Shown here piece after piece: positions 8,990 to 21,453 of a stretch of 51,650 nt of DNA. The notes beneath the pieces were generated by a model. The model saw nothing but the letters and a program-made list of their open reading frames with translations, was not told the origin of the DNA and did not search any database. Source of the DNA: a phage; NCBI GenBank assembly GCA_019844455.1, contig GCA_019844455.1_3938.1; one strand, written 5' to 3'. Each line of letters begins with the position of its first letter. The first letter of the stretch is position 1. The translations under genes were made by a program, and so were the position numbers.

Positions 8990-14373
<5,384 letters not shown>

Positions 14374-14374
<1 letters not shown>

Positions 14375-15843
14375 TGGCAGGATTAACTACAACAGGATTA
14401 CAAACTCTAAGATATCAGGAAATTTTTGATAATATCAAATCAAGACTTCTTAGAGATATTTCACCAAACCTTGACGTTTCTGAAGATAGCCAATTAGGTC
14501 TCTTCCTAGCTTCAATTGCAAGGTCTTTAGCAGATACACATGAGATTCTATCAGAAATCTATGACGGCGGGACAATTGACAAGGCTGAAGGATTTAACCT
14601 TGATGATATTACAGCTTTGAATGCTGTATACAGATATGTTGCTCAGGCAACAAGGGGTCAGGTTGAGTTTACTGGAACAACTGGTGCTACCATCTCTTCA
14701 ACAACAAGATTGAGAAGTACTGCTGGAAATATCTTTTATCCAGTTAACAATATTACCCTTACCCCATCATATTGTGTTGAAGCTGTTCTTGAAGTTAACT
14801 CTTTACGAACTGATGCAGATTATGTTATTATTATTGATAACGTTATTTTCTCGTATAAACCAACCTCATCAGACACAATTACCACACTACTAACTAAATT
14901 AGCAGAGGCTATTAATGGTGGTATTGTAGCAAAAGCAGAAGTCATTAATGATGGAGCCGCATTAAGAGTCTATAAAGACGAAGGTGATATCATTGCAAGA
15001 ACAAACCCTATGGTTGTCACTGCAACAATGTTTCTGACCTTTACAAAGATTACAACTATTTCAGATGTAGTAGCTGAAGAGGTTGGTGCTACCCCTGCTT
15101 TGGCTGGTACGCTTATTGAGATTGAGACAACTGTTGATGGTCTTGACAGTATTTATAACAGGTATGACTTAACAACTGGTAGAAACGAAGAAACTGACAC
15201 AGAACTTAGACAGAGATATTTAGAATCCTTAGCAGTTACTGGTGTAGGGACTTTGGATGCAATTGTAGCTGCTGTTAAAAGAGTTCAAGGGGTCTCAGAT
15301 GCTTCAGGTGTTGAAAATGATACTGAAGAGACGAACTCAGAAGGTCTTCCACCAAAATCTTTTAAGATTGTCGTAGTTGGTGGTCAAAATGATAATGTTG
15401 CTCAAGCAATCTGGGATACAAAACCTGCTGGTATTAGGGCTTATGGCTCGATTTTTGGCACAGCCTATGATTTAGGTGGTTTAGCACATAATATTTATTT
15501 TAGCAGACCAACACCAAAATACGCATTTGTTAAAGTCTCTTACTCTTTATATGATGAAGAGAGCCTGACAATCCCTGAAGAGGATATCAGAGACAGTATT
15601 GTACAAGGTATTAATGCCTACGGAAGAACTCTTAAGGTTGGTAATGACGTTATCCCTAACAGAATTTATGGGTACATCTATGACGTAATCAAAGGTATTG
15701 AGATTAATGAGGTGAAGGTAGCATTATCAAACAGCCAATCAGTTCCACCTAGTGACGAACAATATACTACAGCAAGAATTACTGTTGACGGTGACCAATA
15801 TACTGTTTGGGAAAGTAGCCAGTATACCATCACTAAGGAGTAA
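14374..15843 (+). CDS. putative baseplate J-like protein
   Basis: 489-aa ORF in canonical position between W-like and I-like genes. Confidence 0.5.
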
Positions 15844-15845
15844 TA

Positions 15846-16700
15846 ATGTTTGAAAAGATTGATAGTGTTTATTATAAAACACTTGATGAAAGAACTGTAA
15901 CACAGTTTAAAGATAAATTTATCTATACAAGTATCTTGAAAGCAATCACTGATGAGCTACAAACACTAGAGGATGTTTGCTGGCAGATGCACACAGAGAG
16001 AAATATCAGGACGTCAGTAGGTCAACAACTTGATAATATTGGCTCACTGATTAAAGTTCCTAGACCTTTAGGTGCTGATGATGAAACATACAGAGCTATG
16101 CTTTATATCCAAATCTTCCTAAGACGTTCTGATACTACTCCAACATTCTTGCAAAAAGCAATTATGACATTGTATGGTGCAACTTTCTCTCAGATTTTTG
16201 AACACATTACTCCTAAGACTGGTGGTATCGTTATCCGTATTAATACTAGAAAAAGCGTTCTTGATGCTGCATATACACTGTCAAAGATTTCTGCAACAAC
16301 CACTGGTTCCGCTGTTATCTTAAGAGATGTTACTTTAAATGGGACCGCTTGGACACCTGTAGAGGTTGCTGATTCATCACTTGCTATTGTTGATGATAAA
16401 GAGAACTGGTTTGTAACTGATGCTAACAGAGGTCTGGTAACAAATAACACTGGTGGCTCTCTGGAGTCCAACCTAGTAGGGAGTCTTGCAGATGCTGGTG
16501 TTATTGATGGTTACTTTAAGGTTGACAGAACAGCAAACTCACAGAGCGATGATTATATGACTGTAGATAGGTCTAATAATAGTGGCTATTTCATTGCTGG
16601 TAAAGAAGCTATTGCAGGTGGTGCATATGGAATCATGGCTGAGGTTGCACAAATTGTCAAAGGCAGAAAAGATAAATCACAACAAGAAGGAAATTCTTAA
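15846..16700 (+). CDS. putative baseplate/tail-fibre attachment protein (gpI-like)
   Basis: 284-aa ORF after J-like gene. Confidence 0.4.
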
Positions 16701-17002
16701 TGGCAGTTCTAAATTGGTCTACAAACGAAGTAGATACTGATGGTAATCAGTTAAAAGTTTTACCACCACCGGAAGTTCAAGAGACAGGTCTTTTAAAGGG
16801 TGAGCCTATGGGTAGACAGTGGTTCAACTATATTATCAACTACCTGCTGAATAAAGTAAATGGCACTGTTGGTGAAGTTCGTTCATATGCAACTGAGCAA
16901 CCAGATTTAGTGGCTAATGGATGGAACCTCATTAAGTCTGAGACAGGGACTGCATCAACAAGTACAAGAAACCTTTACACATATGAATATGTAGGAGCTT
17001 AA
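16700..17002 (+). CDS. hypothetical protein
   Basis: 100-aa ORF, ATGG overlap with upstream stop. Confidence 0.4.
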
Positions 17003-17004
17003 TA

Positions 17005-18180
17005 ATGGCAGTAGGTGAAATTCAAATTAGTGCCTTGCCACAAGCGGCCTTACCAATTGATTTGAGTGATATCTTCCACCTTAAGCAAGGTGTTGAGGAT
17101 AAAAGATGTACGCTTGAGCAGTTGTTAGCACCTCACGCATCTCTGAGGAATAATCCTCATGGTGTAACTAAATCACAAGTGGGTCTTGATAATGTTATTA
17201 ACTCTCTTCAATTAGTTGCAGCGAATAACTTGTCAGACATTGTGAATGTTGCTGAGGCAAGAGCAAATCTACAAATTATGTCGTCAGAGGAAGTGAATAA
17301 TTTAATTAAGAAACATATTGACGACAAAAGTAACCCACATAACACAACGAAAGCACAGGTCGGTTTAAGTAATGTTCAGAACTGGACAACATCCAATCTG
17401 TACAATGAAGATGCTGATAAGTATGCTACCGCGAAAGCAGTTAATAATTTATACAAAGCTATCCAAGCGTCATATCCAGTAGGGACTATTCACCTATCTG
17501 TTAACTCTGCTAACCCATCCACTTACTTGCTTTGTGGAGGTACTTGGGAGTTAGTTTCTAAAGGTAGAGCACTAGTTGGTTATGATACAGATTCTAGACC
17601 TGTTGGTTCAACGTTTGGTTCTCAGACTGTAGCATTAACAAATAATAATTTACCAGCACATACTCACTCTATCTATCTAACAGGTGGTGGTCATACACAC
17701 TCTGCAAGTGTATCTATCTCTAGTTTTGATTATGGTTCAAAAAGTACATCAACTTTTGATTACGGTACAAAAACGACTAATAGTGCTGGTGCTCACACTC
17801 ACACGTTTAGTGGCACAACAAGTAATGCTGGTAACCACAACCATAGAGTCCCTATGAGGGGTAATGATAGGAGTGGCACAAACGCTATTACTGCATCTGC
17901 TGATGCTGGTGTTGGTAATGCTATGTATACTGATTTAGCTGGTGCTCACACTCATAGCTTCTCAGGTACAACTGCATCATCTGGTGCTCATAGCCATACT
18001 GTCGCAATTGGTGCTCACAGCCACACCGTTAATATCGGTTCGCACAGTCATACAGGCACTGTTACTGTTTCTAGCTCTGAGCATACACACTCAGGGACAT
18101 CTGGTTCTGTTGGTGGTGGTCAAGCTTTCAGTGTTGAGCAGCCATCTTTTGTAGTATATGTGTGGCAGAGAACAGCTTAA
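17005..18180 (+). CDS. tail fibre protein with His-rich HxH repeat tip
   Basis: C-terminal half carries repeated GAHTHxFSGTT / GAHSHTV motifs and ends AFSVEQPSFVVYVWQRTA, paralogous to C-terminus of next gene. Confidence 0.7.
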   Translation: MAVGEIQISALPQAALPIDLSDIFHLKQGVEDKRCTLEQLLAPHASLRNNPHGVTKSQVGLDNVINSLQLVAANNLSDIVNVAEARANLQIMSSEEVNNLIKKHIDDKSNPHNTTKAQVGLSNVQNWTTSNLYNEDADKYATAKAVNNLYKAIQASYPVGTIHLSVNSANPSTYLLCGGTWELVSKGRALVGYDTDSRPVGSTFGSQTVALTNNNLPAHTHSIYLTGGGHTHSASVSISSFDYGSKSTSTFDYGTKTTNSAGAHTHTFSGTTSNAGNHNHRVPMRGNDRSGTNAITASADAGVGNAMYTDLAGAHTHSFSGTTASSGAHSHTVAIGAHSHTVNIGSHSHTGTVTVSSSEHTHSGTSGSVGGGQAFSVEQPSFVVYVWQRTA

Positions 18181-18190
18181 TTTCTTTACA

Positions 18191-18210
18191 GGGGCTTTAT
18201 AGCCCCTTTT
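18191..18210 (+). terminator. intrinsic terminator between the two tail-fibre genes
   Basis: GGGGCT / AGCCCC stem, TTAT loop, then TTTT. Confidence 0.65.
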
Positions 18211-18226
18211 AAGAGGAAAACTTATA

Positions 18227-20776
18227 ATGGCAGATTACAAATTGAGTCAATTAAACTCAATCGACACAATTCGTTCAGAAGACCTATTGCACATCAGAGT
18301 TAAGAAAAGACCTGAAATGTTGGGTGACGAAGACCGTAGAATGACCTATCAAGACTTCTTAGCTTCCTTCAAACTAGAAAGGTTTGTTCAGATTGCTGGG
18401 AGTAATATGACTGGGGATTTAGGTATTGTCAAGTTACTTTACGGTGGTAAGGCAGTGTTTGACCCAACAGGTTCTTCTGAGATTACTATTGGGGATATTT
18501 TAAAGACTTTTAAAATTAACTCAAATGGTCTTAAACTCACTATTGCAGATGCTTCAAGGTCAGCAACTGTTTATCATACTTTGAATAAACCAAGCCCTAA
18601 TGAGCTTGGCATGAGAACTAATGAAGAGAATGATGCAAGATATGCAAGGCTCGCTGTTACAAATACATTCTCTGGAACTCAGAACATTCAAGGTGATGCT
18701 AACTTACTTCGCCTTAGAAACCAAAATGCAAATAATGCACAATATATTGAAGGTGTAAACCTAGATGGTTCGGCTAGATGGTGGGTTGGTATTGGTAGTA
18801 ATGGTTCTGATGAAGTGAAGCTGTATAATAACAAATATAATTCAGCCTTGACTATTGCAAGCAACATCTCTGTGAATAAGTCTTTAGCAATCACTGGTCA
18901 AGTTCAACCTTCAGATTTCTCTAACTTAGATGCCAGATACTTCACTCAGACAGTTGCTAATCAGAGATTTGCACAGTTAGCTGGTAATAACACCTTTACA
19001 GGTGCTAACACATTTAGGACTATGAGTGTTATCTCAAATGCTGCTGCTATCACACTGCAATGTGCATCAGCAAACGAATCCCTGTATCTACTTGCAAAAG
19101 ATTATGAAGGTGGAAACTTATGGTATCTTGGTAAAGGTAGTTCAGGTGCTGGTGTAACTATCTACAACTATACCACTAACACCTCTTTAGTCTTAGATGC
19201 TGCTGGAGTATCAGCAAATAAAAATGTCAGAATCACTGGTCAAGTTCAACCTTCAGATTGGGCTAACATTGACTCTAGATATATTCCGGCAGCAACATTA
19301 AGTACGATTGCAAGAACTAATGCAAGGAATACTTTTAATGGTGTACAGACAGTTGTTACGGATAATGAAGGTCTGATTGTTAAAAACTCTACTCAGAATA
19401 GACCATTATATATTCGTGGTGTGGACACTACTAATGTATCAAGATGGTGGATTGGTGTTGGTGGTGCTGATACGAATGATGTTACCCTAAATAACAGTTA
19501 TTCTGGAACCCAATTGGTTCTCGGGAATACAACATCATACATTAACAAAACATTGACTATTGCTGGACAAGTTCAACCTTCAGATTTCTCTAACTTAGAT
19601 GCTAGATACTTTACGCAAAGTGCTAGTGATAGTAGATACCTAAGAATCAGAAGCACTAGCTTCAATGTGGGAAACACTGATAAGTGGGCTAAAATTGCCA
19701 CTGTTGTGATGCCACAATCAGCATCCACTGCTGTTATTGAGGTATTTGGTGGGTCAGGTTTTAATATTAATACACCAAACCAAGCAGGTAAATGTGAAAT
19801 TGTTCTGCGAACTTCAAATAACAATCCAAAGGGCTTAAATGTTGTTGCTTGGAGAACATCAGAGAACACCATTGTCAGGGATATTGGTTATGTGAATACT
19901 TCTGGAGACACCTATGATATTTACTATCTTGCTGGTACGTATCAAAACAGCACAACGACAAGGGTTCAGTCTTCTAGTAATGCAAGTGTACAGTTGTTTG
20001 AAGTCCCACAGACATTTGATGATGCTCCACAAGGTATTGTGAAGGGTACAATTGCAAAATACTACACAAGTTTGCAAAAACCAACCCCTTCAGATATTGG
20101 TGCATACACTAAAGCAGAAACTGACCAGAAGATTGCAGAAGCAATTAGTGACTCTACAGACCTGAATAAAATCTATCCAGTAGGCATTGTGACGTGGTTT
20201 AACAGTAATGTCAACCCTAACACAGCACTTCCTGGGTTAACTTGGACGTACCTGAACAATGGTGTTGGTAGAACTATTAGAATTGCAGCAGCAAACGGTT
20301 CAGATGTTGCTACAACTGGTGGTTCAGACTCTGTAACGTTGTCTGTTGGTAACTTACCTTCACACACACATAGCTTCTCTGCTACCACTTCATCATTTGA
20401 TTATGGTACTAAGACTTCTAGCACAACTGGTAACCATAACCACAACAGGGGTACTATGGAGATTACTGGTACAGTAGGTTACTTTAGAAGTGACTCTAGC
20501 AGCTTCTACACAGCAAGTGGTGCATTCACACTTGGTAGCTCAACTGCTTCTAAAGGCTTCACTGGTTCTAACTTTACTTATGGTATCCCTGCCAACTTTA
20601 ATGCGTCAAGAACTTGGTCTGGTGTTACTAATACAACTGGTAACCATAACCATACTGTAGGTATTGGTGCTCACAACCACACAGTTAGCGGTAACACAGG
20701 TGGTACTGGTTCTGGTTCAGCATTTAGTGTTACTAACCAGTTCTATAAGTTAATGGCTTGGGTAAGAACTGCTTAA
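18227..20776 (+). CDS. long tail fibre protein with internal repeats and His-rich HxH tip
   Basis: 849 aa; three copies of ITGQVQPSDFSNLDARYFTQ; C-terminus with GNHNHTVGIGAHNHTV motifs ending AFSVTNQFYKLMAWVRTA; RBS AAGAGGAAAA. Confidence 0.75.
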   Translation: MADYKLSQLNSIDTIRSEDLLHIRVKKRPEMLGDEDRRMTYQDFLASFKLERFVQIAGSNMTGDLGIVKLLYGGKAVFDPTGSSEITIGDILKTFKINSNGLKLTIADASRSATVYHTLNKPSPNELGMRTNEENDARYARLAVTNTFSGTQNIQGDANLLRLRNQNANNAQYIEGVNLDGSARWWVGIGSNGSDEVKLYNNKYNSALTIASNISVNKSLAITGQVQPSDFSNLDARYFTQTVANQRFAQLAGNNTFTGANTFRTMSVISNAAAITLQCASANESLYLLAKDYEGGNLWYLGKGSSGAGVTIYNYTTNTSLVLDAAGVSANKNVRITGQVQPSDWANIDSRYIPAATLSTIARTNARNTFNGVQTVVTDNEGLIVKNSTQNRPLYIRGVDTTNVSRWWIGVGGADTNDVTLNNSYSGTQLVLGNTTSYINKTLTIAGQVQPSDFSNLDARYFTQSASDSRYLRIRSTSFNVGNTDKWAKIATVVMPQSASTAVIEVFGGSGFNINTPNQAGKCEIVLRTSNNNPKGLNVVAWRTSENTIVRDIGYVNTSGDTYDIYYLAGTYQNSTTTRVQSSSNASVQLFEVPQTFDDAPQGIVKGTIAKYYTSLQKPTPSDIGAYTKAETDQKIAEAISDSTDLNKIYPVGIVTWFNSNVNPNTALPGLTWTYLNNGVGRTIRIAAANGSDVATTGGSDSVTLSVGNLPSHTHSFSATTSSFDYGTKTSSTTGNHNHNRGTMEITGTVGYFRSDSSSFYTASGAFTLGSSTASKGFTGSNFTYGIPANFNASRTWSGVTNTTGNHNHTVGIGAHNHTVSGNTGGTGSGSAFSVTNQFYKLMAWVRTA
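18889..19619 (+). repeat. three intragenic direct repeats (~55-60 nt) inside long tail-fibre gene
   Basis: Near-identical copies of GGTCAAGTTCAACCTTCAGATTTCTCTAACTTAGATGC at about 18889, 19233 and 19560. Confidence 0.8.
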
Positions 20777-20783
20777 TCCCTTG

Positions 20784-20812
20784 TTGACTGATTGTTAAGA
20801 TGGTGTTAATAT
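20784..20812 (+). promoter_or_regulatory. candidate sigma70-like promoter
   Basis: TTGACT-N17-TAATAT upstream of 20856 ORF; overlaps a 9-bp inverted repeat (20797-20805 / 20829-20837). Confidence 0.35.
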
Positions 20813-20855
20813 TCTTTATGGGTATTCTCACCATCTTGGCTGATGAGGTGATTAA

Positions 20856-21053
20856 ATGCCTACAATCCTAGCAATTCTTCTAAAAAATCTAGGTAGCTTC
20901 TTCTGGAAACTCATTTTATCCCTTCTAAGTGAATACATGATTGAGAAAGTGTTCTTTAAGCTTGCAAGATATCTTGCGAGTAAGACAGACACACCTATTG
21001 ATGATGAGTTCGTAGATAACTTAGAAAAAGCTTTTAAGGGGGAGAATAAATGA
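20856..21053 (+). CDS. small membrane protein
   Basis: 65-aa ORF with hydrophobic N-terminal segment, RBS GAGGTG. Confidence 0.4.
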   Translation: MPTILAILLKNLGSFFWKLILSLLSEYMIEKVFFKLARYLASKTDTPIDDEFVDNLEKAFKGENK

Positions 21054-21421
21054 AGTGGCTAGAGGATGCTTTTAAAAATAATATTGGTGCAATTGTAGTT
21101 GGTATTTTTAGTGTTATTGGGATGTATACCACGATGCAAGTTTCAAGTGGTAAGCAAGAAGTGTCTGTCACAACGAAGTTACAGCAGCTAGATAATTATT
21201 CCAAAAGTAACTATTCAGCTATTCGTGATTTACAGTCTGACATGAGACTTATTCAGTTAGGGATGGAGAATCAGAAAGTTCAGTTAGAGAATGTTAAGGG
21301 TGAGAATGCAAAACTTACCAAAACTCTTGATAAGTTCTCTGACAGTGTAAATAATCTGGCTCAATCAGTATCAGCCCTCCAAGCTATTACTGAGAAGAAC
21401 ACAAAAAGTACTGAAAAATAA
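21050..21421 (+). CDS. membrane-anchored coiled-coil protein (i-spanin-like topology)
   Basis: N-terminal TM segment (IGAIVVGIFSVIGMY) followed by heptad-rich helical domain; ATGA overlap with upstream ORF. Confidence 0.4.
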   Translation: MKWLEDAFKNNIGAIVVGIFSVIGMYTTMQVSSGKQEVSVTTKLQQLDNYSKSNYSAIRDLQSDMRLIQLGMENQKVQLENVKGENAKLTKTLDKFSDSVNNLAQSVSALQAITEKNTKSTEK

Positions 21422-21428
21422 AGTTTAA

Positions 21429-21453
21429 GGCTCCCGTAAAAAGGAGCCTTTTT
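21429..21453. terminator. bidirectional intrinsic terminator between convergent operons
   Basis: GGCTCC / GGAGCC stem with 8-nt loop, T-run on plus strand and A-run (T-run on minus) flanking. Confidence 0.7.

Follow-up and report, generated by a model that had tools for sequence, protein, structure and literature searches.

Evidence that two adjacent tail fibre genes of a Felixounavirus encode T4 gp37-type tips with separate heads

A phage DNA of 51,650 nucleotides (NCBI GenBank assembly GCA_019844455.1, contig GCA_019844455.1_3938.1), referred to below as the window, contains two consecutive open reading frames (ORFs) whose products both end in a histidine-rich region. This raises the question of what these proteins are, how their distal ends are related, and whether they might determine the host range of the phage. 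We conclude with high confidence that they represent the short tail fibre (STF) and the long tail fibre (LTF) of a Felixounavirus, a genus of Felix O1-like myoviruses with hosts in Escherichia, Salmonella and Shigella, and that each fibre carries a tip of the T4 gp37 type, characterized by HxH motifs (two histidines separated by one residue), with a head of its own. The gene boundaries given by the initial annotation were confirmed:

17005-18180, + strand: STF gene, 391 amino acids (aa); orthologue of Bas63 gp26, Felix O1 gp76 and wV8 gene 82
18227-20776, + strand: LTF gene, 849 aa; orthologue of Bas63 gp27, Felix O1 gp77 and wV8 gene 83

All motifs quoted initially were likewise found, namely AHTHSF and two copies of GAHSHTV in the STF, SHTHSF, GNHNHTV and GAHNHTV in the LTF, and SSFDYG(S/T)K in both. 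The C-termini of the short and the long ORF read AFSVEQPSFVVYVWQRTA and AFSVTNQFYKLMAWVRTA, respectively. The STF harbors nine HxH motifs (aa 219, 230, 264, 278, 315, 329, 338, 347 and 360) and the LTF four (aa 713, 737, 807 and 816), and within the last 200 residues every histidine is part of such a motif (18/18 and 8/8, respectively). Composition-preserving shuffles yielded on average 1.5 (STF) and 0.28 (LTF) motifs, and the observed count was reached in 0 and 1 of 20,000 cases, indicating that the occurrence of HxH is not random. Elsewhere in the window, ORFs of 100 aa or more contain no more than two HxH motifs each.

A search against all PDB sequences revealed the receptor-binding tip of T4 gp37 (2XGF) as the best match of both fibres, with STF aa 145-362 aligned to chain residues 17-227 (E=2.4e-26) and LTF aa 707-828 matching with E=1.1e-6. 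The STF alignment comprises a gapless block of 103 columns in which HxH falls on HxH at every position. When the preceding block is included, 7/7 T4 motifs coincide with HxH in the STF, the spacing (34, 14, head, 14, 9, 9) is identical, and the head between T4 HxH 3 and 4 comprises 34 residues in both proteins. The LTF contains two motifs on the outgoing and two on the returning strand, the last three of which are aligned to T4 HxH motifs. Thus, the STF differs from gp37 by two extra collar-proximal motifs (LPAHTHS and SEHTHS), and the LTF by having only four. The FDYGTK repeat is common to T4 gp37 and both fibres, and the C-terminal AF..VR.A pattern is alike. However, the fibre that carries the tip consists here of one protein and is joined to the baseplate, whereas in T4 the tip belongs to the distal subunit of a four-protein fibre. 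In T4 gp37 a row of seven iron ions in the trimer axis is bound by the seven HxH motifs, whose histidines are indispensable (PMC6957217).

The initial annotation had compared the tips to T4 fibres of the gp37/gp12 type. The gp37 part of this assignment is borne out by the homology to 2XGF, by Pfam and by the orthology to Bas63 described below. The gp12 part was rejected, as the PDB search returned no gp12 chain at E<=1 for either fibre; the baseplate entries 5hx2 and 5iv5 were matched through gp10.

Alternatively, the histidine-rich segments could be low-complexity, disordered linkers without a defined metal geometry. Their simple composition (G, S, T, H) would be in line with such linkers, and so would an AlphaFold2 (AF2) monomer model of LTF aa 470-849, built from a 44-sequence alignment, in which the predicted local distance difference test (pLDDT) score stays below 50 over aa 743-805. 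Against this stands the register-exact alignment to a crystal structure whose motifs bind iron, including the spacing of 14, 9 and 9 in the descending strand of the STF, which equals that of T4 gp37. Moreover, the HxH positions are nearly invariant in 44 diverse homologues and across the genus, and low confidence in a monomer model is expected because the chain would be ordered only in an interdigitated trimer. We therefore regard disordered linkers as very improbable.

The assignment to Felixounavirus is based on a comparison of 4.8 kb around both fibre ORFs with phage records. The region matched 258 records, nearly all of them Felixounavirus and 79 of them Salmonella phages, and showed 97.2% nucleotide identity to Escherichia phage KEP3 and 96.6% to the Escherichia phage wV8 group, in both cases with the same gene order. 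In the wV8 record genes 82 and 83 are both annotated as tail fibre proteins. The STF shares 77.6% global identity with Bas63 gp26 and 76.9% with Felix O1 gp76, and the LTF 63.2% with Bas63 gp27 and 72.9% with Felix O1 gp77. In line with this, the STF matched the tail fibre family PHROG 2097 (E=3.7e-138), and the LTF matched PHROG 4277 end to end. All 29 Felixounavirus loci obtained by a scan of IMG/VR carry the STF/LTF pair, with 7-9 HxH motifs in the STF and 4-7 in the LTF.

The genome of Bas63 (MZ501086.1, Escherichia phage JohannRWettstein) was found via its long-fibre tip. The genes bas63_0023-0029 are collinear with positions 14374-21421 of the window, with equal ORF sizes, and the gene order in both phages is wedge 2, wedge 1, platform, STF, LTF, a 65-aa ORF, a 123-aa ORF and thymidylate synthase. 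The HHxH motif of gp27 at residues 692-695 agrees with the residue numbering in PMC12609058. According to this cryo-electron microscopy study (Sci Adv 2025), gp26 forms the short tail fibre of 430 Å and gp27 the long one of 630 Å; each is trimeric, is anchored to the baseplate through an N-terminal domain, and carries a distal T4 gp37-like collar, an HxH needle with seven (gp26) or six (gp27) motifs, and a head (PMC12609058). In contrast to these numbers, nine and four motifs are present in the STF and LTF of the window. Furthermore, the LTF head comprises 67 aa here and 32 aa in Bas63, the LTF 849 aa compared to 784 aa, and both heads differ between the two phages. The resemblance of the C-termini of gp76 and gp77 to T4 gp37 was noted in the Felix O1 genome paper of 2010 (PMC3185647). 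Hence, the genes, their gp37-like tips with an HxH needle in each fibre, and the annotation of a terminator between the genes are already published (Felix O1 2010, the wV8 annotation and the Bas63 structure of 2025).

We also asked how closely the two tips of the window resemble each other. They had initially been described as near-identical modules, which does not hold: BLASTP of the tips yielded 31% identity over 221 columns with 37 gaps (E=1e-16), the DNA of the two genes is alike only in His-box stretches of 54 nt and 37 nt (81-84%), and the heads of the STF (34 aa) and the LTF (67 aa) are unrelated, with 16% identity. A recent duplication of the tip in this genome was rejected in view of the low protein identity and the lack of long DNA repeats. 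The same figures bear on a scenario in which recent tandem duplication produced the tip and left the short ORF as a copy in decay, for which the adjacency of the genes and their common motifs and C-terminal residues could be adduced. However, the STF gene is intact in 29/29 IMG/VR relatives as well as in Bas63 and Felix O1, and the fibre is visible on the Bas63 baseplate (PMC12609058). Moreover, the ratio of nonsynonymous to synonymous substitution rates (dN/dS) outside the head ranges from 0.04 to 0.13 in the STF, with 0.04-0.06 in its aa 1-140. The remnant scenario, to which we assign hardly any probability, is thus refuted by conservation and selection data. For both genes together dN/dS outside the heads is 0.04-0.14, which indicates purifying selection on both and argues that neither is a remnant; inside the heads the ratio is not interpretable, as the compared cassettes are non-homologous and dS is saturated.

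The LTF gene is present in Bas63 and Felix O1 as well, and is interrupted only in the IMG/VR loci L003 (7223-9593, frames of 541+259 aa) and L020 (7218-9561, 453+311 aa), which may reflect a sequencing frameshift or a disrupted gene.

The domain layout of the STF, as deduced from the alignments, is as follows:

17425-17688, + strand: STF collar, approximately aa 141-228, including the first HxH motif LPAHTHS (aa 219-221); Pfam Gp10_C
17689-17844, + strand: STF ascending needle, aa 229-280, with HxH at 230, 264 and 278 and two FDYG(S/T)K repeats; aligned to T4 gp37 HxH 1-3
17845-17946, + strand: STF head (turn), 34 aa, aa 281-314; predicted receptor-contacting tip, from the 2XGF alignment and the conservation minimum
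17947-18090, + strand: STF descending needle, aa 315-362, with HxH at 315, 329, 338, 347 and 360, the first four on T4 HxH 4-7
18091-18177, + strand: STF C-terminal segment, aa 363-391, AFSV...VWQRTA; 91% conserved

The collar is supported by Pfam Gp10_C, the domain of gp10/gp11/gp12-type collars (PF21939; aa 154-276, 68.1 bits compared to a cut-off of 27) and by a match to T4 gp10 chains (E=3e-6). A chain that doubles back to the collar has been described for the T4 and Bas63 fibres (PMC12609058), and by analogy the C-terminal segment of the STF would return to the collar and close it. On the outgoing STF strand of several relatives (L022, L024, L026, L028, Bas63, L025, L027 and L030) additional FDYG(T/S/N)K repeats, up to four in number, take the place of HxH turns, which suggests that the length of the needle and the number of putative metal sites vary by gain and loss of repeats.

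For the LTF the corresponding features are:

18647-19636, + strand: LTF shaft, aa 141-470, three gp37_trimer-type repeats; Pfam PF20744 in three stretches, E=9.5e-78
19637-20086, + strand: LTF beta-sandwich domain, aa 471-620, second hypervariable region; conservation 0.20-0.31
20087-20443, + strand: LTF collar and ascending needle, aa 621-739, with HxH at 713 (LPSHTHS) and 737 and one SSFDYGTKT; 88-93% conserved
20444-20644, + strand: LTF head cassette, 67 aa, aa 740-806; predicted receptor-contacting tip, conservation 0.24-0.32
20645-20773, + strand: LTF descending needle (HxH 807 and 816) and closing segment AFSV...AWVRTA; 93-99% conserved

A family of direct DNA repeats (D1) lies in the shaft at 18875, 19217 and 19544. 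The beta-sandwich domain was modeled with confidence by AF2 (aa 471-615; pLDDT mostly 73-91 in aa 471-620), and it could serve as an additional glycan-binding or spacer domain. A Foldseek search of the model against the PDB returned only beta-sandwiches of the tailspike N-terminal type (the WceF tailspike-like 6TGF, E=1.5e-6, and 5W5P); 2XGF was not among the matches because the needle is not modeled. The LTF collar aligns to that of the STF by BLASTP, and many LTF homologues carry PF21939. The ending common to both fibres, AFSV...W.RTA, aligns in the LTF to the C-terminus of T4-type gp37 (AFNYIVRLA), consistent with the chain turning back to the collar. In addition, the side tail fibre protein Stf of E. 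coli lambdoid prophages, which contains the Pfam domains Collar (PF07484) and Phage_fiber_2, shows 44-46% identity over 92% of LTF aa 470-849. This likeness spans the beta-sandwich domain, the collar and the needle, whereas the N-terminal attachment domains differ.

Which part of the fibres, then, varies among relatives? Conservation was determined relative to the window over 30 sequences, i.e. the window and the 29 IMG/VR loci. It amounts to at least 0.9 at the N-termini and collars of both fibres and drops to minima of 0.38-0.48 at STF aa 281-320 and 0.24-0.32 at LTF aa 741-800. These minima coincide with the segments between the outgoing and the returning HxH runs, where several unrelated head types are aligned. 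The head type of the LTF tracks the isolation host: the type present in the window was found in 64 phage records, of which 37 are assigned to Escherichia (many of them to O157 or other Shiga toxin-producing E. coli), 20 to Shigella and one to Salmonella, compared to 79 Salmonella phages among all records matching the region. Taken together, these results support the proposal that the fibres are host-range determinants. Since the two heads are unrelated, it is also plausible that this phage has two receptor specificities, as initially suggested.

The comparison of individual phages indicates that heads are exchanged as cassettes. Compared to KEP3 and wV8, the LTF gene shows 99% identity in the shaft and the mid domain, but only 85% in the 150-nt bin containing the head. 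With phage Pr103Blw the pattern is reversed: the head shares 99% nucleotide identity and the 143-aa tip of the LTF is 100% identical, whereas much of the shaft is unalignable or 81-92% identical. The mismatches to KEP3 in positions 20000-20900 of the window cluster accordingly, 40/49 falling between 20437 and 20689, and this cluster is bounded by the second (20435) and fourth (20672) HxH motif of the LTF. The collar (20087-20434) and C-terminus (20672-20773) of the LTF show a dS of 0.25-0.6 compared to 1-2 in the STF and the rest of the LTF, and this low dS on both sides of the head is consistent with homogenization by frequent recombination.

Homologues of the LTF head were also detected in gp37 of T-even phages, with 77% protein identity in Tequatrovirus CJY920 and 70% in Mosigvirus vB_EcoM-ZQ3 (aa 19-112 of the 143-aa query, corresponding to LTF aa 725-818). 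These gp37 heads have the same FDYGTK and GNHxH flanks as the LTF of the window; unlike the LTF, however, both proteins contain more descending HxH turns and T4-type collars and shafts. A separate case is provided by L009 and L010, in which the LTF head (approximately locus positions 9300-9570) is almost identical to that of T4 gp37 (28 residues followed, after a gap, by NTNAAGNHSHTFSF), suggesting another head transfer across families. Moreover, in Felix O1 (L083, NC_005282, 9901-13466) and in the related loci L016, L019 and L021 of the Salmonella lineage the STF and the LTF carry essentially the same head (GRYGGDSIGGK.RV.VSGT.Q), with 81-100% protein identity. In Felix O1 itself the two heads share 94% protein identity, with 81% identity of the DNA across 270 nt, in contrast to the unrelated heads of the present phage. 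This arrangement suggests that sequence passed from one fibre gene to the other within a genome, and that both fibres share a single receptor specificity; the available parts of the cited literature contain no statement of this shared head. Thus, of the two origins envisaged for the common tip, module exchange is directly evident from the mosaicism of the head cassettes and their sharing with T-even phages, while recent duplication fell with the sequence comparison above.

These observations also bear on a T4-like division of labour, in which the LTF would recognize the host reversibly and the STF, like gp12, would bind irreversibly to the conserved core of lipopolysaccharide (LPS). The STF is the shorter fibre, attaches directly to the wedge in Bas63 (PMC12609058), and is more conserved overall than the LTF; the BASEL paper draws the short fibres by analogy and calls their role unexplored (PMC8594841). 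However, the tip of the STF is of the gp37 type, and its head is as variable as expected for a host-range determinant, with several unrelated types. The common head of both fibres in Felix O1, L016, L019 and L021 likewise speaks against a strict division into variable recognition and conserved core binding. We thus consider such a division of labour unlikely, though less so than the other alternatives discussed here, and favor gp37-type tips with receptor-contacting heads on both fibres.

Next, we considered the expression of the LTF gene, as a terminator had been proposed between the two genes. The intergenic region contains the following element:

18190-18207, + strand: intergenic hairpin with a 7-bp stem and a 4-nt loop (AGGGGCT-TTAT-AGCCCCT); centroid -12.9 kcal/mol, five G-C pairs

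The hairpin is real. Its stem is invariant among 16 representatives while the four loop bases vary freely, which suggests selection for the structure, although invariance without covariation cannot prove it. A rho-independent terminator is annotated at this site between wV8 genes 82 and 83 and, as t76, between Felix O1 gp76 and gp77 (PMC3185647, Table 2). As to the features of an intrinsic terminator, the GC-rich stem is present, but the stem is followed by at most TTTT where a U-tract of approximately five or more is usual, and a consensus terminator scan did not call it. In three lineages (Sf13-like, L025 and L027) the U-tract is reduced to 1-3, the sequence being TAGAAA, TATAAA or TATTAA instead. 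Immediately downstream, the Shine-Dalgarno sequence AAGAGG (18211-18216) starts 4 nt beyond the stem and precedes the ATG of the LTF gene at 18227.

An efficient intrinsic terminator at this site would render the LTF much scarcer than the STF or require its separate regulation. While the conserved GC-rich stem and the annotations in wV8 and Felix O1 fit this possibility, the short U-tract and the negative scan do not, and the approximately 19 nt between hairpin and ATG, which include the Shine-Dalgarno sequence, leave no room for a promoter. In addition, up to six fibres per baseplate are seen in particle classes of Bas63 (PMC12609058), gp77 was detected in Felix O1 virions and was abundant, with gp76 at 9% coverage, and genes 76 and 77 stand together in the Felix O1 transcription table (PMC3185647). 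We therefore judge an efficient terminator improbable. The hairpin most likely represents a leaky terminator or an mRNA-stabilizing structure, and strong differential expression of the two fibres is unlikely. Given the lack of promoter space, the LTF would most simply be expressed by read-through, co-transcribed with the STF.

Upstream of the STF gene lies the following ORF:

16700-17002, + strand: 100-aa ORF; orthologue of Bas63 gp25 by position and length, LTF platform on the baseplate

This ORF matches PHROG 4141 end to end and agrees in position and length with bas63_0025, whose product gp25 forms the LTF platform (PMC12609058). Downstream of the LTF gene, the ORFs 20856-21053 (65 aa) and 21050-21421 (123 aa) encode proteins with hydrophobic N-termini, which are termed holin in some records. 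They are followed by a second hairpin at 21427-21450 (AAGGCTCCCGTAAAAAGGAGCCTT), which resembles a bidirectional terminator with T-runs on both strands, separates the convergent 123-aa ORF from thymidylate synthase, and corresponds to t79/t80 of Felix O1. We also noticed Felixounavirus fibre sequences filed under Campylobacter phage A132/A126 (MG065664/MG065668) and under Pseudomonas aeruginosa and Staphylococcus hyicus names (proteins P0005 and P0023/P0024); these entries are probably mislabeled or contaminated.

A further question concerns the folding of the tips. T4 gp37 needs the chaperone gp38, and lambdoid side tail fibres are paired with the assembly protein Tfa. In line with this relationship, the tfa products of lambda and HK97 were among the gp38 homologues retrieved, and in ZQ3, whose gp37 carries the same head as the LTF, the gp38 gene lies directly downstream of the gp37 gene. 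In the window, by contrast, a search with a single gp38 query detected no such gene, so that assembly would probably differ from that in T4.

The apparent absence of this gene is one of the points that speak against our interpretation of the locus. A tblastn search with ZQ3 gp38 yielded nothing better than E=1.8 in the 51.6-kb window, and a group of 14 records named Felixounavirus was absent among the matches listed for the 363 phage records that match gp38/Tfa; with a single gp38 query this is a weak negative, compatible with distant homologues or a chaperone of the gp57A type. Likewise, the LTF collar scored 24.2 bits for Gp10_C, just under the cut-off of 27, and the low AF2 confidence covers most of the distal needle and head of the LTF, which leaves the monomer model neutral on trimer geometry. 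Finally, the correlation of head types with hosts is drawn from isolation hosts in database records, and co-transcription by read-through is argued from the lack of promoter space.

The mechanism outlined in the following combines the homology, motif register, variation pattern and mosaicism found here with the trimeric state, attachment sites and fold known from the literature; from these we infer metal binding, receptor identity and read-through. By orthology to Bas63, each fibre would be homotrimeric, with the conserved N-terminus anchoring the STF to the wedge of the baseplate and the LTF to the platform formed by the 100-aa protein encoded upstream. Distally, a needle would follow the collar: each chain would extend outwards, reverse its direction at a small head and return to the collar. 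The HxH motifs of the outgoing and the returning strands are predicted to point into the trimer axis, such that each metal ion (Fe2+ in T4) would be held by six histidines from three chains. The STF would offer up to nine putative metal sites and the LTF four. This metal stack may act as a structural rivet rather than as a receptor site, and specificity would reside in the head at the turn. The two unrelated heads would then probably confer two receptor specificities; LPS or other components of the E. coli and Shigella cell surface are the most likely receptors.

In addition, the HxH and FDYGTK boxes flanking the heads may act as homology joints for the swapping of cassettes. Exchange of this kind is observed among LTF genes of Felixounavirus, with T-even gp37 and, in the Felix O1 lineage, from one fibre to the other within a genome. 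We tentatively propose the combination of three statements, namely that these boxes are portable recombination joints, that the present phage with its two specificities is one of their products, and that the needles fold without gp38/Tfa; as a whole, we consider it possible but somewhat less than an even bet. If true, gp37-type needles that fold without gp38/Tfa would imply an unrecognized assembly route.

The detail added here leaves the current understanding of these fibres unchanged. In practical terms, it comprises the limits of the LTF cassette (20437-20689), the circulation of the same head in T-even gp37, and the difference between phages with one head type, as in Felix O1, and with two, as in the phage studied here. 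Phages of the wV8/Felix O1 type are used for typing and for biocontrol of E. coli O157 and Salmonella, and the heads are targets for predicting or re-engineering their host range.

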